Part shown: piece after piece, positions 20,234 through 40,124 of the stretch
How the letters are laid out: each line of letters begins with the position of its first letter
How positions within the stretch are numbered: the first letter of the stretch is position 1
Sequence record: NC_054915.1
Direction: 5' to 3' (one strand)
Source: Escherichia phage vB_EcoM_G8
Length of the DNA stretch: 64,000 nt
Made by a program: the position numbers and the translations under genes
The notes under the pieces: model-generated
What the model was told of the DNA's origin: nothing
Seen by the model: the letters and a program-made list of their open reading frames with translations, nothing else
Database searches by the model: none

Positions 20234-20761
20234 TTATGCGAGTACCGTCTTTAACCGTTCTTCAAATTTCCGAAGAGTATTCTGGCGTTCAGCTCTTTGC
20301 TTTTTGTAAGTTTCAATACGCTCTGAAATGAGAGTGTATCGTTCATTTACTGATTCTTTCATAAAATCAGGAATTTCACGAGAAGCTTTAATCTCGTCAA
20401 ATTTATCAATAACAGCTTGCTCTTCAGCAATTAAGTTATCATACATCAAAATATCTTTCTTGATGAACTCAATATCTTCTTGAGTTACACGAGATAATTT
20501 AGATGCTTTATCCTTTTTGTACTGTTCATTAGTATCACGAGACCAGTGTAATGTACGATTTTTATTCGTATTCTTGTAAATTTCTACAATACCAATCTCA
20601 TCAATAATAACGATCCAATTCCAACGGGATTTGTAAATTTGTCCTCCATCAACCGTGATTTCACCTCCGATTGAGATGTCATTAAAGAACTTGCTTTGCG
20701 CTTCAGATTTAAATTTACCATCATTGTAATTTACCAAGTTGAAAATATCTTTAGCGTTCAT
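20234..20761 (-). CDS. Hypothetical protein
   Basis: Minus-strand ORF 175 aa with C-terminal charged helix. Confidence 0.45.
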   Translation of the reverse strand: MNAKDIFNLVNYNDGKFKSEAQSKFFNDISIGGEITVDGGQIYKSRWNWIVIIDEIGIVEIYKNTNKNRTLHWSRDTNEQYKKDKASKLSRVTQEDIEFIKKDILMYDNLIAEEQAVIDKFDEIKASREIPDFMKESVNERYTLISERIETYKKQRAERQNTLRKFEERLKTVLA

Positions 20762-20790
20762 TTTGTGTTCCTCCGTAGTTGATAGTTGTA

Positions 20791-20819
20791 TAGTACCACA
20801 GAGGAACGGTCTTGTAAAC
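20791..20819 (-). promoter_or_regulatory. T4 early promoter with conserved leader
   Basis: Minus strand GTTTAC -35 and TGGTACTAT -10; followed by conserved leader ACAACTATCAAC. Confidence 0.55.
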
Positions 20820-20821
20820 CA

Positions 20822-21136
20822 CTAAAAGAAACTTCTTTCACAATTTTTTCCACTGAACCAAGCGCTCACTGCTTTCTTAGTCTCAGGAGCAGTGTTATCC
20901 ATAAACCATTCAAAGGCAGCCTTTTTATGATTCTGGAGGGCTTCTCGGGCTTTAATCTGCTCACGGTCTATTAACACTAACATATGAGCCTTTCTTGTCA
21001 CCATGGGCTTCTTATGATTTTTTGAATACTCCCAATCATTTGTCCATCGCATCGTTGTTGCGAATTGAAGTACAGCTTCTTTAATTTTAGTTTCGTAAAT
21101 TTCACGAGCCTTTGAGTATAACATCATTACCTCCAT
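20822..21136 (-). CDS. Hypothetical protein
   Basis: Minus-strand ORF 104 aa. Confidence 0.45.
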   Translation of the reverse strand: MEVMMLYSKAREIYETKIKEAVLQFATTMRWTNDWEYSKNHKKPMVTRKAHMLVLIDREQIKAREALQNHKKAAFEWFMDNTAPETKKAVSAWFSGKNCERSFF

Positions 21137-21226
21137 TTACCAGTTTAATTCTAGTCATCTTTTTAATGGCAGTCCATATAATCTATTTCTGAACTGCCTT
21201 TTTGTCTTAGAAGTCCTCTTATGAAT

Positions 21227-22207
21227 TTATTTCAGAAGAGTAACCGTAGCAATTTCTTCCCAATGGTTTTTGTCGGTCATAATAAAGTCAGCAAGATAAA
21301 GAGCAGTACGCAGTGAAACATTGCGTAAACGATTAACATTGACTTTCATCCATGATAATGCTTTATAAGTTTCTTCATCAGAAAGACCGCGCTTTTGCAT
21401 CATGTCGGTTGAAAGAATAACATCTTCAACCCTGACCATAATTTCTTCATTAGTGTGAACACCCAAATCCAAATAAACTGAGCGGGACACTAATGCTTGT
21501 AAATGTGGAGCAAGTTTAGTACCACGGTCTAATTCGCGGTCAATGTCAACGTTTGTGATAAAAACAATCGTTCCTTTAAATTCAAACTCACGCTCAATGC
21601 CTTTTTCTTCTAAGTAAGAAGATGCAGTGCTCCAGCAGACTTTACGGGTCTCTCCAGTGTCCAGAGCGGCTTTTAGAAGATTAAGAATGTCCATATCAGA
21701 GAAAACATCCACATCATCAATCAAAAGGACAGAATTCTCTTCACGATTATTCCAAAGCTGTTCATAAAGACCGATACCAGAGATTTTACCATTAATGCTT
21801 TTATACTCAATGTATCCATTATCATTTGCTTTATTTAAAGCTTTATCTAAAGAATATGTTTTACCAATACCTGCTGCACCAGAGATAATTAATGAACGAA
21901 TGTTTCCGTTAATAATACCATTCGTCATCATTCCCATAACATTAAATCTTTTATTAATGCGGGTTTTCATATCTTCATACGATTCTTTAACTTCTTCAAC
22001 TTTTACACCATCATATGAAATGTCTGATTTGTAAACCCAAACACCGCGACGTTTACCGTCAATTTCAACAAAAACTTTACCATCTCCTTGTGCATCTACC
22101 GGAGCATTATCTGGGAACCATTCACCTAAGAGCTCAAAAGTTCCAGAGATTTCTTTACCAAAGTAGATACCCTTATTGATAGTTACAGTTTTCATTTTAT
22201 TCTCCAA
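21227..22207 (-). CDS. P-loop NTPase (AAA-like)
   Basis: 326 aa; Walker A GAAGIGKT and Walker B VLLIDDVD. Confidence 0.6.
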   Translation of the reverse strand: MENKMKTVTINKGIYFGKEISGTFELLGEWFPDNAPVDAQGDGKVFVEIDGKRRGVWVYKSDISYDGVKVEEVKESYEDMKTRINKRFNVMGMMTNGIINGNIRSLIISGAAGIGKTYSLDKALNKANDNGYIEYKSINGKISGIGLYEQLWNNREENSVLLIDDVDVFSDMDILNLLKAALDTGETRKVCWSTASSYLEEKGIEREFEFKGTIVFITNVDIDRELDRGTKLAPHLQALVSRSVYLDLGVHTNEEIMVRVEDVILSTDMMQKRGLSDEETYKALSWMKVNVNRLRNVSLRTALYLADFIMTDKNHWEEIATVTLLK

Positions 22208-22230
22208 ATCCGTATCAGTTGATAGTTGTA

Positions 22231-22260
22231 TAGTACCATAAAGCTTTATGCTTGTAAACA
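22231..22260 (-). promoter_or_regulatory. T4 early promoter with conserved leader, preceded by terminator hairpin
   Basis: Minus strand GTTTAC -35, TGGTACTAT -10, same leader as at 20778-20798. Confidence 0.55.
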
Positions 22261-22280
22261 GTTTTGTGAAAAATTTTTGA

Positions 22281-22308
22281 AATAAAAAAGGGAGCCCGAA
22301 GGCTCCCT
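22281..22308 (-). terminator. Rho-independent terminator
   Basis: Minus strand GGGAGCC-UUCG-GGCUCCC hairpin followed by UUUUUUAUUU. Confidence 0.65.
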
Positions 22309-22309
22309 A

Positions 22310-23320
22310 TCATTTATAATAACTTCGGTGGTTTTCAAGATAGACCTTCTCAAGGAAGTCATCCCAGAAACTCATGTCTACTGTTTTAGGCATACCATTC
22401 TTAGAAGCTTCAGTAGATGCTGCTTCTACTTGATCGACCACATCTTCCAAAAACTCTTGAACTGTTTTAAATGGATGTTTACCCAACTTCACGTCGAGAA
22501 TAAATGGAGCATCTTGGAGTGGATAAATCAAGTCGCCAGTTTTGTAAATTTCCAATAGTTGAAGTCCACCACGACAAGCATGACTTAGTGCTTTCCAATC
22601 AATACCTTCATTAGCTTCGGCCTTACGAGCACGTTCACCATATTCAGCATCTAATTTGTTCAGTGACTGCTTAAGCTCAATAAGAGAAAGCGTTGTCTGA
22701 TATTTACGACCCAGCACTGTATAGAACGTTTGTGGACCTGTTTTCTCATGATTATGGAACACCCATTCACAGAATTCGTTTTCTGGAAGACGATGCTTAA
22801 TATCTTCAACTTTAGTACGACGCTGCTTAATGGAACCGTCTTCTTGGTAATCAACCCATTGCTCAGGGATTTGATTAACTACTTTCAATACATCATGTAA
22901 TGCAGCCAAACGAGAACCCTTGACGCCGTATTTAGAAGCTTGCTTGCGGACATATCCTAAATAGGATTTCATGTTAGTCGTATAAAAACGAGAACGGTTG
23001 TCTTGAATAAACTTCCACACATCAGGCAAATCAGATTTAACTACTAGTTCAGGTGGAGTGTGAAGCATATCCAATGCTACAGTTTCACCATCTGCTGCTA
23101 ATTTAAAGAAATATTTAAGACTGTATAGTTCATGGTCAATATCATCTTTAGTGTTTTTAGATGATGTGTTGTTGGTGTTTTTACTCATGTGCTCTTTAAC
23201 GTTACCGGTCAAGATATCACGAGCATGAGGGACATAAATTTCTTTAAAATCGACGTCAGATTCAGGAGTAGACGTTCCATAAAGGTGGCTACCAAAATAA
23301 GACTTAACTACAGTTTTCAT
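22310..23320 (-). CDS. Nucleotidyltransferase-fold protein (Pol-beta superfamily-like)
   Basis: 336 aa; N-terminal GS-x10-DVD signature (YFGSHLYGTSTPESDVDF) typical of minimal nucleotidyltransferases; substrate unknown. Confidence 0.5.
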   Translation of the reverse strand: MKTVVKSYFGSHLYGTSTPESDVDFKEIYVPHARDILTGNVKEHMSKNTNNTSSKNTKDDIDHELYSLKYFFKLAADGETVALDMLHTPPELVVKSDLPDVWKFIQDNRSRFYTTNMKSYLGYVRKQASKYGVKGSRLAALHDVLKVVNQIPEQWVDYQEDGSIKQRRTKVEDIKHRLPENEFCEWVFHNHEKTGPQTFYTVLGRKYQTTLSLIELKQSLNKLDAEYGERARKAEANEGIDWKALSHACRGGLQLLEIYKTGDLIYPLQDAPFILDVKLGKHPFKTVQEFLEDVVDQVEAASTEASKNGMPKTVDMSFWDDFLEKVYLENHRSYYK

Positions 23321-23504
23321 TATTCCACCTAATCATTTCAAGATATTGAACTAACTTAGCTTTAGATTTATCCAAATCCTTTTTAGCTGCTTCTATACCG
23401 TCGTATGAATATCCTTCACAATGCTCAACTGCTAATTGATATGAATCTATTTCAATATCACGTGCTAATTTAATGATTTTTTCAAACTGTTCGCGTGTTA
23501 GCAT
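23304..23504 (-). CDS. Hypothetical small protein
   Basis: Minus-strand ORF 66 aa. Confidence 0.4.
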   Translation of the reverse strand: MLTREQFEKIIKLARDIEIDSYQLAVEHCEGYSYDGIEAAKKDLDKSKAKLVQYLEMIRWNNENCS

Positions 23505-23506
23505 AC

Positions 23507-23746
23507 TTAAACTCTCGTATTATGATCGATAATTTCATCAAGAAACATATCTAACGCTTCTACAGCATTATTAACTTTATCTTCAAGTTCTTCAATACTT
23601 TTATTTGCAATGCCTGACGAAAACCAAGCAAAGTCACTAAGTTCCTCATCTGCTTTACGAATTAAAGCTACCAATTCCTTAATTTTATCCGCTTGTTCGA
23701 TACTAATCATTATTCCACCACATATGAAAGAGAGAATATTGCACAC
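23507..23746 (-). CDS. Hypothetical small protein
   Basis: Minus-strand ORF 79 aa. Confidence 0.4.
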
Positions 23747-23943
23747 GCCATGTGAGTTGCAACTTCATCACACATATTATAACGTTTCTTAAGAAGTTCT
23801 ACAAGTTCTTCACTAGTAACTTCATCCATGTCGACGAAAAAATCACCATTAATGATGACGTAGATATTTCCTTCTTGATTGAGTGCTTCAATTTTCATGA
23901 TGTTCTCCTCTTTATCCGATAGTTGTATAGTACCACAGCTCAA
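23710..23943 (-). CDS. Hypothetical small protein
   Basis: Minus-strand ORF 77 aa. Confidence 0.4.
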
Positions 23944-23956
23944 ACGGAAAGTAAAC
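23928..23956 (-). promoter_or_regulatory. T4 early promoter with conserved leader
   Basis: Minus strand GTTTAC -35, TGGTACTAT -10, conserved leader. Confidence 0.55.
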
Positions 23957-23960
23957 CGGT

Positions 23961-23989
23961 AAAATGAAAAAAGTCTCCCGAAGGAGACT
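23961..23989 (-). terminator. Rho-independent terminator
   Basis: Minus strand AGUCUCC-UUCG-GGAGACU hairpin followed by UUUUUUCAUUUU. Confidence 0.65.
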
Positions 23990-23993
23990 AACG

Positions 23994-24380
23994 TTATTCG
24001 AGGGAAAGAAGATATTTACTCTGGTAAAACATTCCAGTAATATCATCTATCGTGCTTTGAATGGCTGGAGGCATTTCTTTGTAAATGCTGTTAGATTGGT
24101 CTAGTATGCGATCAATCATTTTAATTGTGTCGGTAGGAAGTTTACTAGCATCTGGAATTGAAGGTGTGTATTTTCTACCAGAATACCCCAAATATTGCTC
24201 ACCAAATTTATCAATCAAATCTGGCAACTCGGAAAAAATAAAATCGTATGCTTTGTGTCTAGCATAACTTTTAGTTTCAAAATGTGCAGAATGAAAATAA
24301 GCTTGTGCAGCCATTAATAAACCTAAGTATTCATCTGCCTTTGAAGGTTTTCCACTTTGTGAAAAGTCGCTGAATTTCAT
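23994..24380 (-). CDS. Hypothetical protein
   Basis: Minus-strand ORF 128 aa. Confidence 0.45.
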
Positions 24381-24670
24381 TCAGTCTCCAATTTAATGTT
24401 CATAATTCTAGCGTATGATTGTGCCATCTCCGCGCCTCGCTCTATACATTCAAAATCAGAAGAGCACGGGTCATTTTTATAGGTCGTTCTCATAAAACTA
24501 TAGAATTGTTCAGACGATTCTACGCTTTTATTTTCAAAAAGCATATAAACGTGCCTAATACCAGATTCCATAAATTTATCAAAATGAGGATCGACATTCG
24601 CTTCAATCGATGGAGATAAAACAAATGACAATCCTAGCATGGCAAATAGTGCCGTTGCTTTTAAGGCCAT
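24377..24670 (-). CDS. rI: Lysis-inhibition regulator (antiholin) RI-like, signal-anchored periplasmic protein
   Basis: 97 aa with N-terminal signal-anchor (MALKATALFAMLGLSFVLSPSIEA); size and position next to tk match T4 rI. Confidence 0.7.
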   Translation of the reverse strand: MALKATALFAMLGLSFVLSPSIEANVDPHFDKFMESGIRHVYMLFENKSVESSEQFYSFMRTTYKNDPCSSDFECIERGAEMAQSYARIMNIKLETE

Positions 24671-24682
24671 AAAGGCCTCCTA

Positions 24683-24895
24683 TCATTTTTGCCCTGTATT
24701 TACTTTATGCCGGTGCACGGCCTTAACTTTATCAAGGTATTTTTCAAAATTTCGCAATCTAGTATAGTCTGCCGGAGATTGGTTGAGTGATACTTCTCGA
24801 CGCAAAGCTGAAATGATATTTCCAACTTCCCTACGAATTTCATCTAATTGAAGAACAGTAAGATTGCGAAGTTGCTTTTCAGTTAATTGTAGCAT
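24683..24895 (-). CDS. Hypothetical protein
   Basis: Minus-strand ORF 70 aa. Confidence 0.4.
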
Positions 24896-24937
24896 ATATA
24901 CCCCTTTAGTTAGATAAACCTATTTATAACTTTTGCA

Positions 24938-25519
24938 CTAACCGAGCTTTTTAGTTAATTCATTCCAATGTTTTCTACACAAAGAAACATAAATTTCATC
25001 ACCAATACAGATTTGATTACCTTCTTTAACTGGTGTTCCATCTTCCATTAATCGAGCTGTCATAATCGCTTTTTTACCGCAATGACAAACTGCCTTTAGT
25101 TCAATAAGTTTATCTGCAATCGCCAAAAGTTCTTTAGAACCTTCAAACAATTTTCCAGCGAAATCAGTCCTTAATCCATAAGCCATAACAGGAACATTAT
25201 ATGTATCAACAATTCGGCTCAATTGATGCACCTGTTCAGTTTTTAAAAACTGGGCTTCATCTACAAATACGCAATGAATATCTTTTTGTGCTTCAGCCCA
25301 TTTATAGAACTCGAAAATATCCATATCATCTGTAATAATATTCGCTTCCTGTTTAATTCCAATGCGAGAAACAACTTCACAGACAGAATCGCGAGTATCA
25401 ATAGCAGGCTTAAGAACTAATACACTCATTCCACGTTCTTTATAATTATGTGCAGCAGTCAAAAGAGAAGCAGATTTTCCAGCATTCATTGCTGCATAAG
25501 TAAAAATTAAACTCGCCAT
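24938..25519 (-). CDS. tk: Thymidine kinase
   Basis: 193 aa; P-loop AAMNAGKSASLL and C-terminal Zn ribbon CHCG...CRKH. Confidence 0.95.
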   Translation of the reverse strand: MASLIFTYAAMNAGKSASLLTAAHNYKERGMSVLVLKPAIDTRDSVCEVVSRIGIKQEANIITDDMDIFEFYKWAEAQKDIHCVFVDEAQFLKTEQVHQLSRIVDTYNVPVMAYGLRTDFAGKLFEGSKELLAIADKLIELKAVCHCGKKAIMTARLMEDGTPVKEGNQICIGDEIYVSLCRKHWNELTKKLG

Positions 25520-25520
25520 C

Positions 25521-25709
25521 TTAGTCCTTAGTTAAATTTTCTAAATATGTTTCTAAATCATTTTCAGCTTTATCGATAGATTTTACTAATTCGTAATATG
25601 TTTCGTCATCTCCGTATTCAGAAGATAATTCAAAAGACAAATCCTTTTCTAAACTAATAATTTCACTAACTAAAAATAATATTTCGTTCTTTTGTTCGCG
25701 AGTAATCAT
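25521..25709 (-). CDS. Hypothetical acidic small protein
   Basis: Minus-strand ORF 62 aa. Confidence 0.4.
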   Translation of the reverse strand: MITREQKNEILFLVSEIISLEKDLSFELSSEYGDDETYYELVKSIDKAENDLETYLENLTKD

Positions 25710-25891
25710 AAGGAATTTATATAATCAATGAGTTCTTGTTCTTTATTATCGAATTCTTTAGAAAGTTCTTCGTACTCGTTTGCACTAAAAGGACCGCATT
25801 CATTACAAACTTTTTCCAATTCACTATTTTTATCCATAACTTCGTGGATAAGAGAAAAGAGTCTGTCTTTTTGTTCTTTACTTAAACTCAT
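25706..25891 (-). CDS. Hypothetical acidic small protein
   Basis: Minus-strand ORF 61 aa. Confidence 0.4.
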   Translation of the reverse strand: MSLSKEQKDRLFSLIHEVMDKNSELEKVCNECGPFSANEYEELSKEFDNKEQELIDYINSL

Positions 25892-26057
25892 ATATTAATT
25901 TCCAGAAGTTTTAAAATAATTCGCTTTTGCTTAAATATTTCCATAGTTAAATGATCAGTATCTTTTTGGCCAATTCCAATGGCAAAACCTTTATTAGCAG
26001 CGAGTTCAATTAAATTATCAAGTTCACGTGACACTTCATATTGTAACTCAGAACTAT

Positions 26058-26270
26058 TCATTTCGGTTTACCTTCTTTAACGAAATCTGGATAAGGATAA
26101 AATCCCGAATAAAATCCTTCACCTTTATGATTGATGCATCCTTTATTAGAACAATAGCACCAATAATCGAAATCACAAGCCATTTCATCGTTGCATAAAG
26201 CAAAAACAACTGGCCATTTACACTTTTCACAGTGGGCATTTTTAAGAATACTAGTTTGGCTCATAACCAT
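26058..26270 (-). CDS. Cys-rich small protein
   Basis: 70 aa with multiple CxxC-like pairs; preferred over the overlapping 26054-26239 frame. Confidence 0.4.
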   Translation of the reverse strand: MVMSQTSILKNAHCEKCKWPVVFALCNDEMACDFDYWCYCSNKGCINHKGEGFYSGFYPYPDFVKEGKPK

Positions 26271-26488
26271 GTCACCTTTAAGCAGTATTCTTCTACATGC
26301 TGTTTACGACCTTTCTTATCAATAAAGGTATATTCAACGAATGTTCCAATGTAGTCTTTATCTACATCATGTGGACTATTAATTGGACATTTAGTACGGC
26401 AAATGCGCTCCCATTGACGAATAATTACTGCCTTATTCTTTGGGTCATATGGATGTGGATAATGTATATTCATAATAATGGTTCCCAA
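26261..26488 (-). CDS. Hypothetical small protein
   Basis: Minus-strand ORF 75 aa. Confidence 0.4.
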   Translation of the reverse strand: MGTIIMNIHYPHPYDPKNKAVIIRQWERICRTKCPINSPHDVDKDYIGTFVEYTFIDKKGRKQHVEEYCLKVTWL

Positions 26489-26937
26489 TCAACAATCACA
26501 ATTTCTAATTTAGAGGAATATGTATCTAAAATCCCCTCAATAATATCCCAGTTCCCTTTACCTATGCCTGCACCAATCCTAGGCATATAGATTGTAGGTT
26601 TAATCAGTTTATTTTCACCAAACTCATTTAATTCTAACATACAATTCATTAAAGCGGAATATTCAAAATTTGGTCCTGGTTGAAATTGAGTATAAAGATT
26701 AAAGCAGTAAGCTTTATGAGTCCTAAAGTATTTTTCATAGACTGAATAAGAACCAAGTTTAGTTACATCACCCCATTCAGTCTGTAATTTATCAGCTTCC
26801 AAAATTTTAGGGAAAGCTTTGGTTAATTGACCTGCGACTCCAGCTTTCATCGTATGAAAACAATTGCATCCATGCGCAATATTTTTACCTTCAGTGAAAA
26901 GGGCGACAATATCGCCCTTGATATATTTTACAATCAT
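26470..26937 (-). CDS. Macro-domain-like protein (putative ADP-ribose binding/processing)
   Basis: 155 aa; pattern GDIVAL...NIAHGCNCFHTMKAGVAGQL...PRIGAGIGKGNWDII resembles macro-domain signatures; by eye only. Confidence 0.5.
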   Translation of the reverse strand: MIVKYIKGDIVALFTEGKNIAHGCNCFHTMKAGVAGQLTKAFPKILEADKLQTEWGDVTKLGSYSVYEKYFRTHKAYCFNLYTQFQPGPNFEYSALMNCMLELNEFGENKLIKPTIYMPRIGAGIGKGNWDIIEGILDTYSSKLEIVIVDWEPLL

Positions 26938-27275
26938 TTAGTACTCAATCCTCGATTATAAGAATCTACCAAACGGTCAACCATTGAATGACAAGCGGCT
27001 TTATCTTTCTCCTCCGCAACTGAACATTCTAAGGTATTCCACTTTTTAGCATATCGTTTTAATAATGTATCGTTTTTGTATCTGCTTGATTTATCTCTTT
27101 CTCCGTCTTTATATGCATATATTAATTTCTGCGCAAATTCAGCTTGGCATGCTTTATTTTTCCCACAATAATCTGCCGCAGTGCGATTTACATATTCTCT
27201 AATTTCAGTATATGATGTATCTGCTAACGCAGAAAATGAAATTAATCCTATACATAAAACCAAAATTTTAGTCAT
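26934..27275 (-). CDS. Secreted/periplasmic protein with signal peptide
   Basis: 113 aa; cleavable signal peptide (MTKILVLCIGLISFSALA); four Cys. Confidence 0.5.
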   Translation of the reverse strand: MTKILVLCIGLISFSALADTSYTEIREYVNRTAADYCGKNKACQAEFAQKLIYAYKDGERDKSSRYKNDTLLKRYAKKWNTLECSVAEEKDKAACHSMVDRLVDSYNRGLSTK

Positions 27276-27813
27276 TTACTATTTCCAAAAGTTTATTATT
27301 TTTAAGGTAATTAGCCTTTTCTAGGACTTCAGAAGCATATTTAGAACCTGCTTTAACATTCCATCCCGAATTATAAGAGGATATTGCTTTTCTTATATCG
27401 CCCTTATGTATATTTAACCAATAAGAAAGTTCAATGTACGCCCAGGAAGCTGAATTGGACCGTTTATTCAACATTCTTTTTATTTCAGCATCGGTCATAT
27501 TATAACCAAGTTCCTTAACTCTTGCTCGCATAGTAGGCAAATAATTTTGGAACATTCCGTAGGCGTGATGCTTTGGTTTAGATTTTAAATTAACTCCGCC
27601 AGAGCTTTCTTGCCATAAAATAGCAGCCATTATATGACCTAATCCGCTCTTGTGGATATTTTTGTGTGTTTTATATTTTCCATCCTTAGAAAATTGTTCC
27701 CCGAATTGATACGCGTAACGCATGTTATCGAGTTGGACATTACTGAAAGTATGCTCGGAGCTATGTGCCATCATTGAAATGGCCAATAGACCAGCGAGTA
27801 GTGCTTTTCTCAT
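27268..27813 (-). CDS. Periplasmic lytic transglycosylase-like protein (SLT/lysozyme-like fold)
   Basis: 181 aa; signal peptide (MRKALLAGLLAISMMAHS); SLT-like motifs WQESSGG and YGMFQ. Confidence 0.55.
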   Translation of the reverse strand: MRKALLAGLLAISMMAHSSEHTFSNVQLDNMRYAYQFGEQFSKDGKYKTHKNIHKSGLGHIMAAILWQESSGGVNLKSKPKHHAYGMFQNYLPTMRARVKELGYNMTDAEIKRMLNKRSNSASWAYIELSYWLNIHKGDIRKAISSYNSGWNVKAGSKYASEVLEKANYLKNNKLLEIVND

Positions 27814-27820
27814 GCTTACC

Positions 27821-28282
27821 TCATTGAGTTTTAATTACTGCTTTAGAAGCCTTTCCTGGTAAACGACGACTGTTGATAATTGCCATCCTGCATTGAAGTG
27901 ACGGGTTTTTGAACTTCTCATTAGGCTTACAAACCGTAAATCCAAGCCAAAGATTTCCATCTGTAATTTCCAAACGCCCAGGACGATATTCAACCCCATC
28001 AATAAAATCCTCGTCAATGTCAGGACGCGGAGGCATACTCAGGAATTCATTAACTTCTAAAACATGGTCTTTTATTTTATGGAATAATTCAAAAACATAT
28101 GTCTCATCAATCTCCCGTTGAATTGCACGATCAAGAAGATGTTGAGAATATTTTAGATGAAACGATGAGACTCCTGCTGCTTTTGATGCCTCACGAATCT
28201 CATTGTTAATTTGACGAAACTCCGACTCAAAGTGACGACGAAGCTTATTTCGACGGATAAAAACTTCTGTATTGATAGTCAT
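27821..28282 (-). CDS. regB: Endoribonuclease RegB
   Basis: 153 aa; length, position between tk and e and early promoter at 28311-28339 fit recalled T4 RegB. Confidence 0.8.
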   Translation of the reverse strand: MTINTEVFIRRNKLRRHFESEFRQINNEIREASKAAGVSSFHLKYSQHLLDRAIQREIDETYVFELFHKIKDHVLEVNEFLSMPPRPDIDEDFIDGVEYRPGRLEITDGNLWLGFTVCKPNEKFKNPSLQCRMAIINSRRLPGKASKAVIKTQ

Positions 28283-28310
28283 GTTATTCTCCTCTTAACT
28301 GATAGAAAAA

Positions 28311-28339
28311 TTATACCACAGTCAAGAGGAAAAGTAAAC
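28311..28339 (-). promoter_or_regulatory. T4 early promoter upstream of regB
   Basis: Minus strand GTTTAC -35 and perfect extended -10 TGGTATAAT. Confidence 0.6.
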
Positions 28340-28341
28340 AG

Positions 28342-28620
28342 TTATTCTTTAAATCTGATCAATTTATTCATAGACTTTGAAACTTCTGCACGAACCTCAT
28401 GTAAGTTTTTAAGCTGTTCAAGACGCTGTTCATAGTAAGCAATTTCATCTTCTTCGAGACAGTCCTGTGAATCTTCTTTAAGATAGCGTGCATAGTCCTG
28501 GAAAGCTTTACGGACTACTTCCTGGAAGTCATCAAGACTTTGAATTTTCTTAGGAGCGGCAGATACACGACGAGGGGCAGTATAATACTCATAACCAAAC
28601 CCTGCACTTAATTGAGCCAT
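28342..28620 (-). CDS. Hypothetical acidic protein
   Basis: Start taken at the ATG sharing one base with the upstream stop (TAATG); 92 aa. Confidence 0.4.
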
Positions 28621-28886
28621 TAGTATTTTTCCTCTGGTTGGAACACAGCACGGCAAGCCCACATACTTGCTTCTTTGAGTTTCGTTTTAGCAATAGTTAA
28701 CTGATCGAGGCTTTCGGCGTAATTCTTCGCGAGTTCATCATCTTCACAGCTATCAAATGCTTCCCAGAATTCATCGTATAAAGCGTCAAAGATAAGTCCT
28801 AAACGAACTTCAGCGTCTTTGATAGCATTCACTTTACCGATTTTCTCTTCAGTATGCGGCTTATAACCCTTAATATCTTCAATCAT
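28620..28886 (-). CDS. Hypothetical small acidic protein
   Basis: 88 aa from ATG at 28886, which overlaps the stop of the upstream ORF (ATGATTGA). Confidence 0.4.
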
Positions 28887-29100
28887 ATTTGACTTCCTCA
28901 CCAGTACATAAATCATATTCAACTAAACGAATAGGTTCATGAATGCCATATCCCTGAACAGAAATTTCTGTCGTAGGATAAATTCCATCAATATCACCCA
29001 TATTCCACGCTTCGTTAAATTGCTGTTCGCCTGAATTACTAAACCATTCGGCGAAAGCATTTAGCACATCTTCAGAACCTTCAATAATTATCTTTGCCAT
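28879..29100 (-). CDS. Hypothetical small protein
   Basis: Minus-strand ORF 73 aa directly downstream of the GrcA-like gene. Confidence 0.4.
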   Translation of the reverse strand: MAKIIIEGSEDVLNAFAEWFSNSGEQQFNEAWNMGDIDGIYPTTEISVQGYGIHEPIRLVEYDLCTGEEVKYD

Positions 29101-29462
29101 TACAAACTCTCGGTAAAGGTACGAGCGATAACGTCGCGCTGCTGTTCCGGAGTCAGAGAGTTAAAGCGAACTGCATAACCGGATACACGGATGGTCAGCT
29201 GCGGATATTTTTCCGGATGCTTAACTGCATCTTCCAGAGTTTCACGACGCAGAACGTTAACGTTCAGGTGTTGACCACCTTCAATTTTAACTGTAGGCTG
29301 TTGCTCAATTTCAATTTCACGGGCATGCAAACCATAGAAAATTTCTGGGTCTACAAAAGAGTCCTCTTTAAAGGTTTTAGAGACAATAATTCGTGCTTGA
29401 ATACCATCTTCAAAATAAATAGTACCTTTATGTGTGCCTTCAAGAATTTGATATGCTTTCAT
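29100..29462 (-). CDS. Autonomous glycyl-radical cofactor (GrcA/YfiD-like; T4 Y06I-type)
   Basis: 120 aa; C-terminal half ([59 protein letters not shown]) is near-identical to my recollection of E. coli GrcA, including glycyl-radical motif RVSGY. Confidence 0.85.
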
Positions 29463-29469
29463 ATAAACC

Positions 29470-29799
29470 TCAATTAGAAAATAAATTTATCCAAGATTGT
29501 TCTTTAATTAAAAATGGCTCAGAATCATATGCCATTAAACTCTGTGTGATTAGTCCTTTAAAAGGCCCATCAATAAATTCCATGGTAAAATATGGAATTT
29601 TATTCATTAGCCGTGCATTAGGAGCAGTACATAAAACTCTGCATCCTTTGAATACACCTTTTTGTAATTTGTATTGCTTGGGATAAAATTCGCTCAAAAT
29701 GTTATTATTTGCTAAAATTTCAAAATGATTCACCAATTTATTTTTAATAGTTTTTGGCGAAAAATAAAGATATTCGAAAAGCTGAGTGTCTGTCATCAT
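29470..29799 (-). CDS. Hypothetical protein
   Basis: Start taken at ATG overlapping the upstream stop (ATGATGA); 109 aa. Confidence 0.4.
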
Positions 29800-30338
29800 T
29801 GCATTCCGATTACGAAAAACTGTGGACGAGTAATACCACCAATACAACATTTAATATTACAGCAGCAGCAGTGTACAGTGTCAATATGGACACTATAAAT
29901 CTTATCCATATCAGGAGATTTGACAGGCTCATCAATTATATACAAAATTCGCGAAAGCGATAAACCTCTGAACTTGCTTCCTTTATTACCAATAAAACTG
30001 CGTACAGAATCAGTAAATAAACGAAAACGTATATCATCATTAGAATAACGCGAAAATTCCTTTTTAATGTTATTTGCAGAAATTTTAGCGTAAGCTGAAG
30101 TATTAGAAAGAACAATAACTGTTCCGCCATCATACAACCAATTAGCAGCAAAGTTAGTCACAGCAATTGATTTACCGGATTGACGTCCACCGTCTAGTCG
30201 AAGTGTGCAATACTGTTTAAGTAAGTCTTCAAATGGCGGGATATATTCGTTTTTACAAATTTCTTCTACTCTAGCATCAGAATGGTGTGTAAAAGCATTC
30301 ATCAGGGATAGATAAGGACCAGTTAAAAATGTTCTCAT
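29796..30338 (-). CDS. Small P-loop NTPase
   Basis: 180 aa; Walker A GGRQSGKS, Walker B-like ILYIIDEP; Cys-rich C-terminus. Confidence 0.5.
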   Translation of the reverse strand: MRTFLTGPYLSLMNAFTHHSDARVEEICKNEYIPPFEDLLKQYCTLRLDGGRQSGKSIAVTNFAANWLYDGGTVIVLSNTSAYAKISANNIKKEFSRYSNDDIRFRLFTDSVRSFIGNKGSKFRGLSLSRILYIIDEPVKSPDMDKIYSVHIDTVHCCCCNIKCCIGGITRPQFFVIGMQ

Positions 30339-30503
30339 TTCTTCTCTCTAAATTTGGGCCATTCCGTGGCGCATGAATTGTCCATTTCTGTATTTACCCA
30401 TTACCGCACTTGGGCTCGACCTTATTACAGGTTGGCGGGAATCCCTCATAGAATCATGAGGTCCAGGTTGTTCCCATTTTATTTGAATGTAAATAGGTCT
30501 GAG

Positions 30504-31082
30504 TTAGGAATTACGGGCTGCATTAGCAACGGCGTAAGCGTACTGGACATTAGCGTCTTTAAACGTACCTTTAGAGGTATCTATTTCTGCCTTAAAGCCG
30601 CCTTTAGCCATAACATCGGCAAATTCTTTACGGAAAGCCATTGCATCAAGACCTTTCCATGATGATTTATGCTTGGCAAATTCAAGACCAGCGTAGTTGA
30701 CAGCCTTAGCTAATTTATTATCAATAACCCATTTACCGGCTTTAGGCACAAACTTCGGGCCTTTTTGTTTAGAGAACAGTTTTAAATTCCAGCGACGAAG
30801 GTCACTGTCGGCTTTAACAAAAGCTGCGTCTAAGTTACTAGCAACAACATCTTCAATATGGGCAAATTTAAGTCCGTCAACTTCAATATTTAGATCGTTA
30901 CGCCAGCGAAGTCCTTCCCAAGCGAAGGCTTTAAAGTCGGAAGCCTTTGTAGCTAAGTACCGTTCAATAGGAGCTGTTTTAGGGTCAAAGCCGTTTCCCG
31001 ATCGGTAGGTCCACTCATCTTTATTAATGCCTTTGGCCTTTACTATAGAAGCTTCGGCAATAAATTCTTGATAGGTTTTCAT
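30504..31082 (-). CDS. ipIII: Internal protein with capsid-targeting leader (IPIII-like)
   Basis: 192 aa; N-terminal MKTYQEFIAE-A capsid-targeting sequence; early promoter at 31111-31140. Confidence 0.6.
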   Translation of the reverse strand: MKTYQEFIAEASIVKAKGINKDEWTYRSGNGFDPKTAPIERYLATKASDFKAFAWEGLRWRNDLNIEVDGLKFAHIEDVVASNLDAAFVKADSDLRRWNLKLFSKQKGPKFVPKAGKWVIDNKLAKAVNYAGLEFAKHKSSWKGLDAMAFRKEFADVMAKGGFKAEIDTSKGTFKDANVQYAYAVANAARNS

Positions 31083-31110
31083 GTGTTTCCTTGTTTGTTT
31101 TGATAGAGTA

Positions 31111-31140
31111 ATTATACCATATTAATACTTAAGCGTAAAC
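31111..31140 (-). promoter_or_regulatory. T4 early promoter upstream of ipIII
   Basis: Minus strand GTTTAC -35 and TGGTATAAT -10. Confidence 0.6.
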
Positions 31141-31143
31141 CGT

Positions 31144-31404
31144 TTAAGCTTTACTGCCAGAAATAATTCCGAAGTTGTTAAAATCATATCCAATATCGTC
31201 AACATCTACTTTAGGACTTGCTACAACATAAGCAATTTCACTACGTTTTGCACAGGTGTTGATTTCTTTACCATCGCCACCTAAGAAAGAATACCCATTA
31301 CGTTTTAATGAGCCAAAGTCTTCCGCATCACCAATGAAAGCTTTAACTTTAAATTTAGAACCTCTGGCATCTGCTTCAACGATAAATTCTTGATACATTT
31401 TCAT
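31144..31404 (-). CDS. Internal protein with capsid-targeting leader (IPII-like)
   Basis: 86 aa; N-terminal MKMYQEFIVE-A leader. Confidence 0.5.
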   Translation of the reverse strand: MKMYQEFIVEADARGSKFKVKAFIGDAEDFGSLKRNGYSFLGGDGKEINTCAKRSEIAYVVASPKVDVDDIGYDFNNFGIISGSKA

Positions 31405-31573
31405 TTTTCCTTAGTAAATTGATTTACCAAAGTATTTGTACCAAGTCGGACGTTGATCAATTTTTTCATCTAAGCGTGCTTGATTTATCGCAATGGACGC
31501 TTCGGACGGGTCATAATTTCCTCCAAGTAGTTGATGAATGTATAGTATCAAAACCCTTGGAGGAAGTAAACAA

Positions 31574-32376
<803 letters not shown>

Positions 32377-32832
32377 TTAAAAGAGGCTGTTCATTATTCG
32401 GTAAAGTGAAGGACCCATCACATATTGCCACTGAGTACGAGGAATAAGGGCAAAAGCATCCATCTCTGGAATCATAACACCATCTTTATTTTCAAAATAA
32501 GACTCGCAATGACAATTTCTGAACATCTCATGCTCTACTGGAATCGTATAATAAAATAACTGTAAGTCTTTATTACTAGAATATTTAAATACACCTAGGT
32601 CTTCTAGAAGGTCTGGATTATAATTGCTAAAACCGGTCTCTTCTGAGCATTCTCTTCGTGCTGCATCTAATGCGCTTAAATCAGAATTTTCTACACGCCC
32701 CTTTGGAATATCCCAGCGATGTGCCATCATTCCAGGCTTACGAGAACCAGTAACCCGTCCCATGAATAAATCTTTATCTTCTGTCATAAAGATAATACCA
32801 GCTGATAATGTTTTCATTTTAATTTCCTGCAT
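32377..32832 (-). CDS. nudE: Nudix hydrolase
   Basis: 151 aa; Nudix box GRVENSDLSALDAARRECSEETGF. Confidence 0.8.
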   Translation of the reverse strand: MQEIKMKTLSAGIIFMTEDKDLFMGRVTGSRKPGMMAHRWDIPKGRVENSDLSALDAARRECSEETGFSNYNPDLLEDLGVFKYSSNKDLQLFYYTIPVEHEMFRNCHCESYFENKDGVMIPEMDAFALIPRTQWQYVMGPSLYRIMNSLF

Positions 32833-33302
32833 TCGGTGATAAAATTATTTAAATTTTGAGTATATTTCTTTTCATCAAAAATCTTTTGCTGCCTACGTAA
32901 ACGCCATGGCATTTCAATGAACGTGTACCATATCCCAGATAATATTGCTGCTGTAAAAATATTAACAAGTATGGTTAAAATAATCCAATCTCCCGTTCTG
33001 TCTACTGGACTTTCTCCAAAGAAGCAAAATACAAATGATGTCACAGGAAAACTAATAATATACCACAGAATCATAATCTTATCTGTGAACCAATCAGCGT
33101 TCGTTAACTTAGCGCGACCATTATGAATACACACGAATTTATCATCTGTTACAGTAAATGGCTTAGCTGCTTGATATCCCATTCTAAACTCCCTAATCAA
33201 CAAATTTTTCATATCTTCGGAACAACCATTCCAGTCAACTCTATCAACTGAAATGCCATCATCCCCATCATCTAAATCATACCAGCGAGTTTTTAAAATC
33301 AT
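32814..33302 (-). CDS. Hypothetical membrane protein
   Basis: 162 aa; central hydrophobic helices. Confidence 0.45.
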   Translation of the reverse strand: MILKTRWYDLDDGDDGISVDRVDWNGCSEDMKNLLIREFRMGYQAAKPFTVTDDKFVCIHNGRAKLTNADWFTDKIMILWYIISFPVTSFVFCFFGESPVDRTGDWIILTILVNIFTAAILSGIWYTFIEMPWRLRRQQKIFDEKKYTQNLNNFITECRKLK

Positions 33303-33661
33303 TTAATTTTCCTACAATCGCTCACAAACTCTTCCATTGATTCTTTTTCAATATAAGACATGTAGCTATTATATTCTTTTAATTGTATTTTGTAATCTTT
33401 TTTTCTTTGCCAATTTATTTTAAAATTATCATAATGAAAATATAACATTGTACCAAAGAATGAAAATAATGAAATCGCTATAGTAAAACGAAGTTCACTC
33501 CAAACCTCTGTTATAATTACTGTGCCGTCGATGTTTAAAATAAAACAGTCAATTAACAATCCAATAAGACTACCTGCAAGAGCTGCAAATGCTGATACGG
33601 CAAGAATTAATAGTGCCTCAGGAAACGAATATTTAACTTTATTTAGTTTTGGCTTTTGCAT
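33299..33661 (-). CDS. Hypothetical membrane protein
   Basis: 120 aa; two predicted transmembrane helices. Confidence 0.45.
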   Translation of the reverse strand: MQKPKLNKVKYSFPEALLILAVSAFAALAGSLIGLLIDCFILNIDGTVIITEVWSELRFTIAISLFSFFGTMLYFHYDNFKINWQRKKDYKIQLKEYNSYMSYIEKESMEEFVSDCRKIK

Positions 33662-34056
33662 CGTGATTCCTTAACAAATTTCATAATTTCATCAAATTCA
33701 TACGCGGCAAGTTTAAGCTGATGTTCCTTTTTAATCTTTTTACACTGTGCTTTCCAATCACGTACGCGTTTACGATAATGCCTTCCTTGATACCAGTATC
33801 CTACCCAATTTACGGGTACTAATAAAAGTGGAACTATTAATGGAAGAATTAGCATTAACACAAGTATTTCGCCAGAATCAATATCAGTCATAACATCTAA
33901 AATACCTCCAATAATCAATAGAATTACAAATGATATGAGTATAACAGGACCTATTAATACATCAGTAGGAATTAGCTGACGCTTTAGTTCATACTTCACA
34001 GGTTTACTTGGAAGGTATAGTGATGGCTTTGACATATTCTCTACATTCCTTAACAA
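33643..34056 (-). CDS. Hypothetical membrane protein
   Basis: 137 aa; two hydrophobic helices, basic C-terminus. Confidence 0.45.
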   Translation of the reverse strand: MLRNVENMSKPSLYLPSKPVKYELKRQLIPTDVLIGPVILISFVILLIIGGILDVMTDIDSGEILVLMLILPLIVPLLLVPVNWVGYWYQGRHYRKRVRDWKAQCKKIKKEHQLKLAAYEFDEIMKFVKESRCKSQN

Positions 34057-34609
34057 ATTTTTCTAATAATAAATCGCTTTCAAAATTAGGATTTTCCACG
34101 AATTTATCAAAAAGATCATCAACGATAGTTAAGATATTCTTTTTATTAAGAATACGCTTATTTTCATATTTTGTTTCAGAGTCAACTATAAGAGTAAAGA
34201 AATATTTCTTTCCCTGAAATTTTACCGTAGTATCAATATAGAACAAATTTGACTTTTGTAAATTACGTTTAAACCATGCGTCACTTAAACTGTAAACGCC
34301 AAGATAATCATAATCGTCATTTAAATAACAAACTGTCCATTCAGGAGAAATGAAATCAGTAAATTCAACATCAAAATCACACGTCAATGAATGAATTGAT
34401 TCAATACTTTTAATGAGTATTCCAGGACGTATTAAAGACTTTTTACCTTTATAAAATCCAGAAAGACTTTCATCAGTTTCGTATGAAGACCCCCAATAGT
34501 AATTACGTCCTTCTGCCATACGTTTAAGAGCATTTAGTAATTGATCTGGAACATCAACCTGTCTTTGGAACTCTTCAAACATTGAATTGAAATCACTTTG
34601 CATTTTCAT
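34004..34609 (-). CDS. Hypothetical protein
   Basis: Minus-strand ORF 201 aa. Confidence 0.45.
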   Translation of the reverse strand: MKMQSDFNSMFEEFQRQVDVPDQLLNALKRMAEGRNYYWGSSYETDESLSGFYKGKKSLIRPGILIKSIESIHSLTCDFDVEFTDFISPEWTVCYLNDDYDYLGVYSLSDAWFKRNLQKSNLFYIDTTVKFQGKKYFFTLIVDSETKYENKRILNKKNILTIVDDLFDKFVENPNFESDLLLEKFVKECREYVKAITIPSK

Positions 34610-34650
34610 TCCTATTTACTCCAAGTAATAGGGGCCGAAGCCCCTTATCA

Positions 34651-35244
34651 TTATTTCAGAGAATTAATATATTCCTGGACATCGGCAGAGGTAGTTTCAA
34701 CCCCAGAAATATTGCCGTTAAAAGTTTCAACTCGAGCAAGGGTATCTTCAATATCAACCTTAGTCAGTGCTGCAATTTCAACTACATCATCGGCAGTACT
34801 AATTCCAAGGGCATTTGCCGCACGAGTTTCACGAATATATTCCAATTTAACTGCAAGTTCTTGGCGAGCATCATCTAACTCAACTACTTTCTTGGCGATT
34901 TCAATTCGCATTTCAGCATAACCGTCAGCTTTAGTAGTCAACTGCTCAGCTGTTCGGCGATATAGTAAACCGAGTTTAGCATGCATTGTTACATCTTGAC
35001 CTTCGGAAAGAAGTTTTCGAATTTCACGCTCTTTTGATTCGGCCTGTCGATTCTTTTCGATAACAAGTTCACGAATACGTTTTTCTTCATTAATAGATTT
35101 AATAGAAGCAGTTTTTAGATCTTTAATTTTATCAAGTAGTTTTGCTGCTGCAGCAGTATACTGTTCTTCAACAGATAGATTTTTAGCCATAGCAGAACCA
35201 AGTTTAGTGCGAATAAACTCAACAATTTTCTTCAGTGTGTTCAT
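34651..35244 (-). CDS. Coiled-coil protein, possibly PspA/IM30-like
   Basis: 197 aa, almost entirely helical; weak local resemblance to PspA (..[13 protein letters not shown]..); fold assignment tentative. Confidence 0.35.
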
Positions 35245-35301
35245 AGTATTTCCTTAGATTGATACAATTAGATAATATCACGTTTTTAATAGATTGTAAA
35301 C

Positions 35302-35637
35302 TTATTCTTCGTCTATCTCATCGATAAAGACGTCAATGGCCTCGATAACGGCATCATTGATAGCCAATAAAGTAAAATCATCGTCAGTACCTTTATAAGA
35401 TTCTGAAGCATTGATATATGCTTGATTGACGAGTTCCCAAGCCTTTTTAAAATAAGGAGTTTCATCATCAGGACAAATATCCCGCACACCTTCAAAGATA
35501 CGATTGGCATAATCTAACACCCATTGTACAGGCATGTTTTGAGAACGTTCGTTAAACTCTTTAAATTCCTTAGATTCAAAAAGCTCTTCAGGATAATAAT
35601 TTCGATTACAAAAAGCTTTACTAAAGTTACGTTTCAT
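35302..35637 (-). CDS. Hypothetical acidic protein
   Basis: Minus-strand ORF 111 aa. Confidence 0.45.
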   Translation of the reverse strand: MKRNFSKAFCNRNYYPEELFESKEFKEFNERSQNMPVQWVLDYANRIFEGVRDICPDDETPYFKKAWELVNQAYINASESYKGTDDDFTLLAINDAVIEAIDVFIDEIDEE

Positions 35638-35692
35638 AATGTTCTCCTCAAGCTACAGGCTCATAATATCTCAATCATGAGCCTGTGTAAAC

Positions 35693-35968
35693 TTATTTCA
35701 TATTATTGAAATATTCTTCTGCGATTTCGTCGTTATCATGGTAAACTTTAGAAGACAGTTTAACATAACCTTCAGCAGTGAACATGTTAATCACAACCTT
35801 TACAGTATACCACTGACCATCTTCATTACCCATTACTGCGTAAGTTTCAAACATCGGATGATCAGGACCGATAACTTTAATATCATTCACTGTACGACCG
35901 AAATCTTCTGAAACACATTTCATAAAGAAGTTGAACAGTTCGCCGTAATTATCCATTTCATTCTCCAA
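35693..35968 (-). CDS. Hypothetical protein
   Basis: Minus-strand ORF 91 aa; early promoter at 36001-36029. Confidence 0.45.
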   Translation of the reverse strand: MENEMDNYGELFNFFMKCVSEDFGRTVNDIKVIGPDHPMFETYAVMGNEDGQWYTVKVVINMFTAEGYVKLSSKVYHDNDEIAEEYFNNMK

Positions 35969-36000
35969 GTTGTTTTCTGTATCAGTAGTTGATAGTTGTA

Positions 36001-36029
36001 TAGTACCATGGAAGAACAGGGATGTAAAC
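36001..36029 (-). promoter_or_regulatory. T4 early promoter with conserved leader
   Basis: Minus strand GTTTAC -35, TGGTACTAT -10, same 21-nt leader as at 20778, 22219, 23917. Confidence 0.55.
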
Positions 36030-36162
36030 AGTTTTGTGAAAAATTTTTAAAAAATTTTAGGGAATTCTAGGGTCAGGAGGGGCAATTAAAAGGTAGGATA
36101 ATATTATTATAAAGGGTATAAACTAAATGATGCCTAGAGAGGCCCGGAAAGGCCTAGATACC

Positions 36163-36190
36163 AAAAAGCCCCAACCTTTTGGTCGGGGCT
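36163..36190 (-). terminator. Rho-independent terminator (copy B)
   Basis: Minus strand AGCCCCGACCAAAAGGTTGGGGCU hairpin followed by U-run; near-identical to the copy at 36697-36725. Confidence 0.6.
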
Positions 36191-36197
36191 AAGAATG

Positions 36198-36687: not shown

Positions 36688-36695
36688 TATTTATA
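36688..36695 (-). promoter_or_regulatory. T4-type late promoter (TATAAATA)
   Basis: Exact TATAAATA on the minus strand between terminator copy A and the ATG at 36659. Confidence 0.55.
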
Positions 36696-36696
36696 T

Positions 36697-36725
36697 CAAA
36701 AAGCCCCAACCTTTCGGTCGGGGCT
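36697..36725 (-). terminator. Rho-independent terminator (copy A) at the end of the tRNA/small-RNA cluster
   Basis: Minus strand AGCCCCGACCGAAAGGTTGGGGCU hairpin (GAAA loop) followed by UUUUU. Confidence 0.65.
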
Positions 36726-36734
36726 AAGCCTTGC

Positions 36735-39720: not shown

Positions 39721-39744
39721 TTTATTCTCCTCAGTAGTTGATAG

Positions 39745-39778: not shown

Positions 39779-39788
39779 GGTTTATAAA

Positions 39789-40097: not shown

Positions 40098-40124
40098 TTT
40101 ATTTTCCTAATTAATTTTGATGAG

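Follow-up and report, generated by a model that had tools for sequence, protein, structure and literature searches.

A recurrent 21-nucleotide sequence in a T4-like phage matches the core of known T4 early promoters and, at one of four sites, lies at a hot spot of small-gene exchange

The 64,000-nucleotide (nt) stretch of Escherichia phage vB_EcoM_G8 analyzed here (record NC_054915.1; hereafter, the window) carries four copies of a 21-nt sequence (the 21-mer), which reads GTTGATAGTTGTATAGTACCA on the plus strand. Taking our explanation as a whole, we consider it highly probable that the four sites are the orthologs of the T4 early promoters upstream of nrdC.8, nrdC.10 (PE 54.4), mobD.5 (PE 57.9), and e.8. 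The elements are already known ones, namely, T4 early promoters and terminators forming units of the promoter-early stem-loop (PeSL) type, and only one of the four, the copy in front of nrdC.10, sits at a real hot spot of small-gene swapping among relatives.

The window is the early region of a Tequatrovirus (T4-like phage). Between positions 17,500 and 42,000, most of it shares 94 to 97% identity with several hundred Tequatrovirus genomes (235Ecol030PP, RB18, T4, and others), tblastn with T4 proteins finds the T4 gene order kept (gene 49, nrdC, mobD, rI, tk, vs, regB, ipIII, e, the tRNA cluster, 57B, gene 5), and all of its early genes lie on the minus strand. The genes flanking the copies are 96 to 100% identical to T4 nrdC.8 to nrdC.11, mobD.5, rI.-1, and e.8; the products of nrdC.8, nrdC.10, mobD.5, and e.8 are all hypothetical proteins. 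The units and their parts are as follows.

20759..20822, minus strand: copy 1, nrdC.8 early promoter (-35 GTTTAC 20819..20814; TGG 20798..20796; -10 TACTAT 20795..20790; 21-mer 20778-20798; Shine-Dalgarno sequence GGAGG 20775..20771; ATG 20761)
22195..22308, minus strand: copy 2, terminator and nrdC.10 early promoter (stem-loop 22308..22289; U-run 22288..22283; UP element 22282..22260; -35 22259..22254; -10 22235..22230; 21-mer 22218-22238; ATG 22195)
23898..23989, minus strand: copy 3, terminator and mobD.5 early promoter (terminator stem-loop 23989..23972; U-run 23971..23966; -35 23956..23951; -10 23932..23927; 21-mer, 18/21, 23915-23935; ATG 23898)
35956..36052, minus strand: copy 4, e.8 early promoter (UP element 36052..36030; -35 36029..36024; -10 36005..36000; 21-mer 35988-36008; ATG 35956)
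36158..36193, minus strand: closest terminator on the upstream side of copy 4 (stem-loop 36190..36167, separated from the -35 by about 140 nt)

Copies 1, 2, and 4 are exact, and copy 3 has all three of its mismatches in the first three bases, leaving an identical part of 18 nt (23918-23935); no match arose in 100 dinucleotide-preserving shuffles. This bears out the recurrence described in an initial annotation of this DNA, which placed copies 1 and 4 correctly, set copy 2 one base off (22219-22239), and credited copy 3 with 19 shared nt rather than 18. Its reading of the copies as minus-strand early promoters with a GTTTAC -35 also stands: on that strand, all four read GTTTAC, 15 nt, and TGG-TACTAT-ACAACTATC, and the spacing between TTTACA and the -10 is the canonical 17 bp. 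The minus-strand 21-mer, TGG-TACTAT-ACAACTATCAAC, corresponds to the TGn motif, -10 hexamer, and start-site region of a sigma-70 early promoter, and judged from its sequence it is a promoter core on the coding strand, composed of an extended -10 TGn, the -10 hexamer TACTAT, a discriminator, and the start-site motif CTATCAAC. Upstream lies an A/T-rich UP element (AAAAATTTTTCACAAAAC at copies 2 and 4, TTTTTTCATTTTACC at copy 3), which is weaker at copy 1 because the stretch falls within the 3' end of nrdC.9, and the spacer of copy 2 contains the palindrome ATAAAGCTTTAT. The genes start 29 to 44 nt past the -10, a Shine-Dalgarno sequence and ATG closing the 3' end of the units. Transcription would begin about 7 nt after the -10, placing about 15 of the 21 bases upstream of the start and only the last 6 or so in the RNA, so that the term "leader" first given to the element was an overstatement.

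T4 has the exact 21-mer at three of the orthologous sites (nrdC.8, nrdC.10, and e.8) and a version with four mismatches at the fourth (mobD.5). T4 record AF158101 has no promoter features; the older records U76612 and X75802 do. U76612 annotates a -35 and -10 before nrdC.8 (the ortholog of copy 1) and a terminator with the -35 and -10 of "early promoter 54.4" and "early promoter 57.9" (the orthologs of copies 2 and 3, respectively), and X75802 annotates a paralog in the ndd region as a promoter. The T4 e.8 site is identical to copy 4 and has no promoter feature in the T4 records examined. Promoter and terminator activity in phage vB_EcoM_G8 itself is what we infer from these sequences.

The 21-mer is not a general attribute of early promoters. 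It occurs at 4 of the 14 strong early-promoter sites in the window, and the T4 genome contains it exactly six times (ndd.6, motA, e.8, nrdC.10, nrdC.8, and imm.1, i.e., 6 of 36 early promoters), with five near copies (frd.3, cef, denV, mobD.5, and ndd.4), so that the ubiquity which would have stripped it of any special meaning was not found. Its parts are more common: TACTAT is the modal -10 of T4 early promoters (15/36), the start-region motif CTATCAAC(TAC) is present at most early promoters of the window, and the shorter motif CTATCAA is far more widespread than the 21-mer. The element is the most conserved subclass of early promoters.

Two of the copies stand behind a hairpin, 12 to 29 nt upstream of the -35. 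On the minus strand, that of copy 2 reads AGGGAGCC-UUCG-GGCUCCCU followed by U6 (local fold, -17.7 kcal/mol; z, -3.7), and that of copy 3 reads AGUCUCC-UUCG-GGAGACU followed by U6 (-10.8 kcal/mol; z, -3.0). The first (22308..22283, with its U-run) comes after the nrdC.11 stop codon and the second (23989..23966) after that of rI.-1, and with G+C-rich stem-loops, U-runs, and positions past a stop codon, both have the makeup expected of intrinsic (Rho-independent) terminators. The hairpins initially described upstream of two copies are thus present, each with its U-run. Their loops, which read CGAA on the plus strand, are cUUCGg when taken from the transcribed strand and not of the GNRA type, and "near-identical" goes too far, as loop, closing pair, and U-tail are shared and the stem sequences differ. 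Copy 1 has no upstream terminator because the nrdC.9 coding sequence, ending at 20825, abuts its -35; it has instead a hairpin overlapping the promoter, without a U-run. Copy 4 has no hairpin within about 140 nt upstream. Across T4, upstream terminators are found at 5 of 9 promoters of the 21-mer class versus 3 of 27 others (p=0.013), and the pairing is a real tendency. A third cUUCGg hairpin in the window, GGGGC-UUCG-GCCCC (34630-34645, minus strand, between e.6 and e.5), lacks a U-run and is therefore not an obvious terminator.

The likeness among copies extends beyond the 21 nt, in blocks that occur in differing combinations. A U-run with the UP element TTTTTTATTT(C/T)AAAAATTTTTTCACAAAAC is common to many T4 copies; the 15-nt spacer AAGCATAAAGCTTTA is identical in T4 nrdC.10 and frd.3, and the spacer AAGACTGTTCTTCC is common to imm.1 and ndd.4; a 30-nt 5' untranslated region (UTR), TACTGATACGGATTTGGAGAATAAAATGAAAA, is shared by ndd.6, nrdC.10, and imm.1, and a second 5' UTR type is shared by e.8 and cef. 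The composite of terminator and promoter at copy 3 has a paralog at T4 promoter coordinate 15288, upstream of mrh.2, and a composite of terminator, U-run, and UP element is common to T2 nrdC.10 and T4 frd.3, the T2 nrdC.10 unit carrying a terminator of the frd.3 type. Identity of spacers and UTRs between copies argues for common descent and exchange between copies and not only for convergent optimization. As a separate observation, the 47 nt comprising the 5' UTR and promoter core of copy 2 (22194-22240) have a 95.7% match in Salmonella phage STML-198, whose flanks are too distant for nucleotide similarity, a pattern suggestive of very strong conservation or else of a transfer of the module.

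Junctions were surveyed with an 801-bp query for each 21-mer copy against all phage records, subsets of which were sampled. A scan for the 21-mer in IMG/VR had yielded no more than 16 stretches, in 7 contigs, which is insufficient for statistics, and INPHARED genomes were used instead. At copy 2, the nrdC.11/nrdC.10 junction, an insert of approximately +262, +430, +480, or +620 bp is present in 19 of the 52 genomes sampled; there are four or five sizes and at least three gene contents, bounded by duplicated promoter modules. The inserts end inside these modules and, in two cases, inside the 21-mer itself. In T2, a 486-nt open reading frame (ORF) lies between duplicated U-run/UP/-35 modules and is followed by its own, second terminator; the insert of Ge15 holds a 201-nt ORF, and that of 235Ecol030PP and UGKSEcP2 holds a 150-nt ORF and a DUF4031 ORF. 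In Ge15 and 235Ecol030PP, the insert starts immediately past TACTATACAACTATCAA and has its other end at a second promoter core, TAnnnT-N4-CTATCAA. In IME537, a deletion that extends from the arm of the terminator to within the spacer has removed the UP element and -35 of copy 2. Pfam returned no match for most cassette ORFs, the exceptions being DUF4031 and Phage_zn_bind. The T2 cassette gene (L031, 579-1064), which has its own early promoter and terminator and no Pfam match, is annotated as "RNA polymerase ADP-ribosylase."

These observations would fit a simple sequence of events. Host sigma-70 RNA polymerase would use the four promoters immediately after infection, aided by the UP element and the GTTTAC(A) -35, and at copies 2 and 3 the cUUCGg hairpin and U-run would end the preceding transcription unit, making each unit a terminator/promoter punctuation mark (PeSL). 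The paralogous modules would offer patches of homology of 20 to 60 bp to the general recombination system of the phage, and recombination between them may occasionally insert, delete, or swap a small gene together with its expression signals. Homologous recombination is the cause that we infer for the indels; crossovers at copy 2 fall in different parts of the module, which fits general homologous recombination and not a site-specific enzyme.

Several observations weigh against giving the units a large part in rearrangement. The copy 1 junction is covered over at least 80% of the query in 497 of 502 records and is one uninterrupted piece in 59 of 59 sampled genomes, the copy 3 junction is intact in 497 of 500 records (the exceptions being a +77 bp variant and one deletion, in Shinka), and neither site thus shows rearrangement in about 500 genomes, so that recombination at the units is at best occasional and locus dependent. 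The Shinka deletion is the one deletion endpoint found in a core, and its partner is the interior of nrdC.10 and not a second promoter; we considered it as a promoter-to-promoter deletion and rejected this, with one end in the copy 3 core, the other inside nrdC.10, and a microhomology of 12 nt. At copy 4, the promoter is always contiguous with e.8 in relatives; divergence begins at the terminator 36167-36190 and at the e.7 promoter, and the variation nearest to copy 4 starts about 140 nt upstream, not at the unit itself. Comparing T4 and five other relatives over 17.5 to 42 kb of the window gives 27 distinct breakpoint edges, 5 of which fall in promoter modules that make up 6.4% of the sequence (p=0.026), an enrichment that is modest and is measured against the whole sequence rather than intergenic DNA only; a 21-mer copy accounts for a single one of the five. 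Relative to T4 there are seven synteny breaks, none of which lies on a 21-mer copy, and early promoters without the 21-mer (e.7, ipIII, and trna.4) mark breakpoints equally well. Finally, the spacers of some copies, such as copy 2 and copy 4, are wholly different, and part of the similarity between copies may for that reason come from selection on promoter function rather than from recent copying.

Taken to its end, this last point yields the alternative that survives best, in which each copy is independently held near an optimum for T4 early transcription, has no role in rearrangement, and is found next to indels only because indels are viable in intergenic DNA. The invariance of copies 1 and 3 and the weak breakpoint enrichment speak for it, as does the comparison of copies 2 and 4, in which the functional positions (UP element, -35, TGn/-10, and start region) are conserved and the 13- to 15-nt spacer differs. 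We nevertheless regard it as unlikely, since it does not account for the identity that distant paralogs show at presumably largely neutral positions (in the 15-nt spacer, nrdC.10 and frd.3; in the 30-nt 5' UTR, ndd.6, nrdC.10, and imm.1), for a modal -10, TACTAT, that is not the sigma-70 optimum, or for the inserts at copy 2, whose ends fall exactly inside duplicated promoter modules and among which three alternative gene cassettes occupy the same point. A role of the 21-mer as an RNA leader element, for example, one that a factor of translation or decay would bind at the 5' ends of early mRNAs, appears quite improbable. It would explain why CTATCAAC(TAC) is kept at most early promoters of the window beyond the needs of sigma-70, and reviews of the T4 early promoters, which are of the UP/-35/TGn/-10 kind, mention additional consensus regions that are unexplained (PMC2988021). 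Most of the element, as set out above, would lie outside the RNA; transcripts from copies 2, 3, and 4 are no more structured than shuffled controls (z, +0.85, 0.04, and 0.23, respectively), and an Rfam scan of 17000-42000 returned tRNAs only. Least probable is an integron-like system in which a dedicated recombinase or transposase would recognize the unit and move ORF cassettes, since despite the several different cassettes at one site and the possible helper protein and mini-circles reported for RB49/phi1 (PMC2839356), there is no integrase or transposase near any copy, crossovers differ (UP/-35 in T2; -10/start region in Ge15 and 235Ecol030PP), and two of the four copies never vary.

The reading of the four sites as paralogous T4 early promoters that occasionally serve as homology patches leaves a more limited picture than the one originally drawn. 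The units had been called mobile, for which nothing speaks in the sense of active mobility, and had been taken as boundaries of accessory cassettes, which holds for copy 2 and for neither copy 1 nor copy 3; most of the genes between the copies (nrdC.8 to nrdC.11, mobD.3 to mobD.5, and the 12 kb from rI to e.8) belong to the conserved T4 set and not to shuffled accessory cassettes. A promoter core, even a conserved one, is by itself no marker of gene shuffling. The nrdC.11/nrdC.10 junction, on the other hand, is a natural landing pad at which about a third of sampled Tequatrovirus genomes carry one or another of several small self-expressed genes, and it may serve phage engineering and the search for accessory or anti-defense genes. 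Of practical value is also an early region that is correctly punctuated into transcription units.

Copy 1 belongs in addition to a set of early promoters that lie inside a predicted RNA hairpin, and those found in the window are the following.

20759-20822, 28277-28342, 31505-31574, 35632-35695, 39715-39781, and 40100-40160, minus strand: early promoters inside hairpins, the spacer pairing with the start region or Shine-Dalgarno sequence

At copy 1, the spacer arm 20807..20795 pairs with the Shine-Dalgarno arm 20779..20767, GGAGG being paired (fold, -22.4 kcal/mol; z, -4.7), a pairing that would be possible only in transcripts reading through from upstream. Copies 2, 3, and 4 are unstructured, and the regB, 31571, e.7, and trna.4 promoters are strongly structured. 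For the 36 T4 early promoters, we computed RNA duplex energies between the -35 plus spacer and the stretch from the -10 to the ATG: promoters paired with their own partner average -13.0 kcal/mol versus -8.05 kcal/mol with permuted partners (0 of 20,000 permutations), a strong signal, and for 18 of 36 promoters no partner ranks above their own. Among the 21 strong cases, the sense strand is favored over the antisense strand (-18.0 versus -13.9 kcal/mol; p=3e-4), which points to RNA-level selection in read-through transcripts, and in about half of these cases the 3' arm covers the Shine-Dalgarno sequence. Folds made for each clade show the regB hairpin kept in three clades of RegB-encoding phages as a 14- to 18-bp stem of different sequence in each; a covariation count found compensatory changes in 2 of 12 pairs, the MAFFT alignment used for it suffering from a shift of register in the T4-type sequence. 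Between T4 and the window, a compensatory change is seen in the e.7 promoter.

Our results lead us to propose, tentatively and with more doubt than conviction, that T-even early promoters follow two insulation designs. Promoters of the 21-mer class appear mostly unstructured and often stand behind a true terminator. Of all T4 early promoters, about half, among them copy 1 and those of regB, e.7, trna.4, and internal-protein genes, appear instead to lie inside a hairpin with their own start region or Shine-Dalgarno sequence. Because such a hairpin would form only in read-through transcripts, translation, or exposure of GGAG to RegB, may depend on which promoter made the mRNA. A mutual exclusion of terminator and embedded hairpin was considered and is not significant (3/8 versus 18/28; p=0.24). 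A literature search, with key older T4 papers outside its reach, found nothing specific on embedded hairpins at T4 early promoters; if functional and not yet described, they would add promoter-dependent translational control to T4 early genes.

Elsewhere in the window, accessory content differs from that of relatives at several loci. Direct repeats of 36 nt, each a terminator hairpin and 94% identical to one another (36158-36193 and 36693-36728), flank a 153-amino-acid (aa) ORF (36659..36198) whose N terminus, MKTYAQFLMTEASA, is similar to the leader that targets internal proteins to the capsid; in T4, there is a single such repeat and no ORF, and CrRp10, UGKSEcP2, and pSs-1 have a different insert of about 635 bp between such repeats. 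The internal-protein locus at 30476-31870 is unlike that of T4, with ipIII (31082..30507) followed by ORFs 31404..31144 and 31855..31574, whose leaders read MK(T/M)Y(Q/S)EF, and with denV and ipII absent; a 42-codon remnant (31539..31414) similar to the DenV C terminus lies just after the structured early promoter at 31571. The gene at the ipI locus (39759-40076) is replaced relative to T4 and other relatives, with breakpoints in the trna.4 promoter and in the conserved coding sequence of the internal-protein leader (40060-40100). At 23310-23334, the window is without the 1.7- to 2.3-kb mobD cluster that every relative compared (T4 and five others) possesses; the junction is an overlap (direct repeat) of 20 to 23 nt at the nrdC.11 start and mobD.3 end, not at a promoter. 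A partial homolog of the MobD homing endonuclease (46% identity, residues 1 to 121) lies at 4714-5058. Relative to T4, a 367-bp insertion between tk.2 and tk.3 (25888-26270) holds two small ORFs, one of which encodes a Phage_zn_bind domain protein (PF23895; E value, 2.6e-29). A 116-aa ORF without a Pfam match (37037-37387) lies between tRNA-Arg and rnaD/rnaC, in a stretch that varies strongly among relatives. The T4 tblastn matches of nrdC.4 (17248-17252) and vs.5 (29050-29051) each come in two overlapping pieces, suggesting a frameshift, which may reflect a pseudogene or a sequencing error.

Among known systems, the T4 early promoters (Pe) are the closest, sharing with the window copies their positions, flanking genes, GTTTAC-N15-TGG-TACTAT architecture, and UP element. 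Differences at the four sites are at the strain level only, the mobD.5 copy of the window standing one further base away from that of T4, and accessory genes differ elsewhere in the window (the mobD cluster, internal-protein loci, and tRNA region). Tuerk and colleagues are said to have described, in 1988, hairpins with C(UUCG)G tetraloops in intercistronic regions of T4; the same cUUCGg loop is found in both terminators of the window and in the hairpin at 34630-34645, with no notable difference.

The mechanism that we propose is the one known as the PeSL model (Arbiol et al. 2010; Comeau et al. 2014), and the suggestion in the initial annotation that promoter/stem-loop units act as shuffling elements in T4-type phages had thus been published, including for the pair T4 and the Yersinia phage PST. 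PeSLs were defined in RB49/phi1 (Arbiol et al. 2010, PMC2839356) and in T4/PST (Comeau, Arbiol, and Krisch 2014, PMC4122927), with the promoter consensus TTTACW-N17-TAYWAT. The units of the window resemble those of T4/PST in this promoter, the AT-rich upstream region, the Shine-Dalgarno sequence and ATG at the 3' end, the stem-loop just upstream, a hyperplastic location, and, at some units, indels bounded by the elements; they differ in that copy 4 has no adjacent stem-loop and copies 1 and 3 have no associated plasticity. With the RB49/phi1 PeSLs they share the composite terminator/promoter logic and the insertion and deletion of cassettes between repeated units, and copy 1 resembles the RB49/phi1 subclass in which the stem-loop overlaps the promoter, which is also a second precedent for the embedded hairpins. 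Unlike those of the window, however, RB49 promoters have a near-perfect TTGACA/TATAAT and polyG/polyC stems, and the authors termed the T-even elements analogs, not homologs, of the RB49/phi1 PeSLs (PMC2839356).

The first precedent for the embedded hairpins is the late promoter nested in a hairpin that occludes the ribosome-binding site in T4 genes e, soc, 49, and I-TevI (PMC3014915). There, as at copy 1 and many early promoters, the Shine-Dalgarno sequence lies in the 3' arm and the 5' arm lies upstream of the transcription start, and, as we propose here, this sequence would be free only in RNA that starts at the nested promoter. The nested promoter is late in those genes and early in ours, where the function is a proposal; if true, it would extend the mechanism of e, soc, 49, and I-TevI from late to early promoters.

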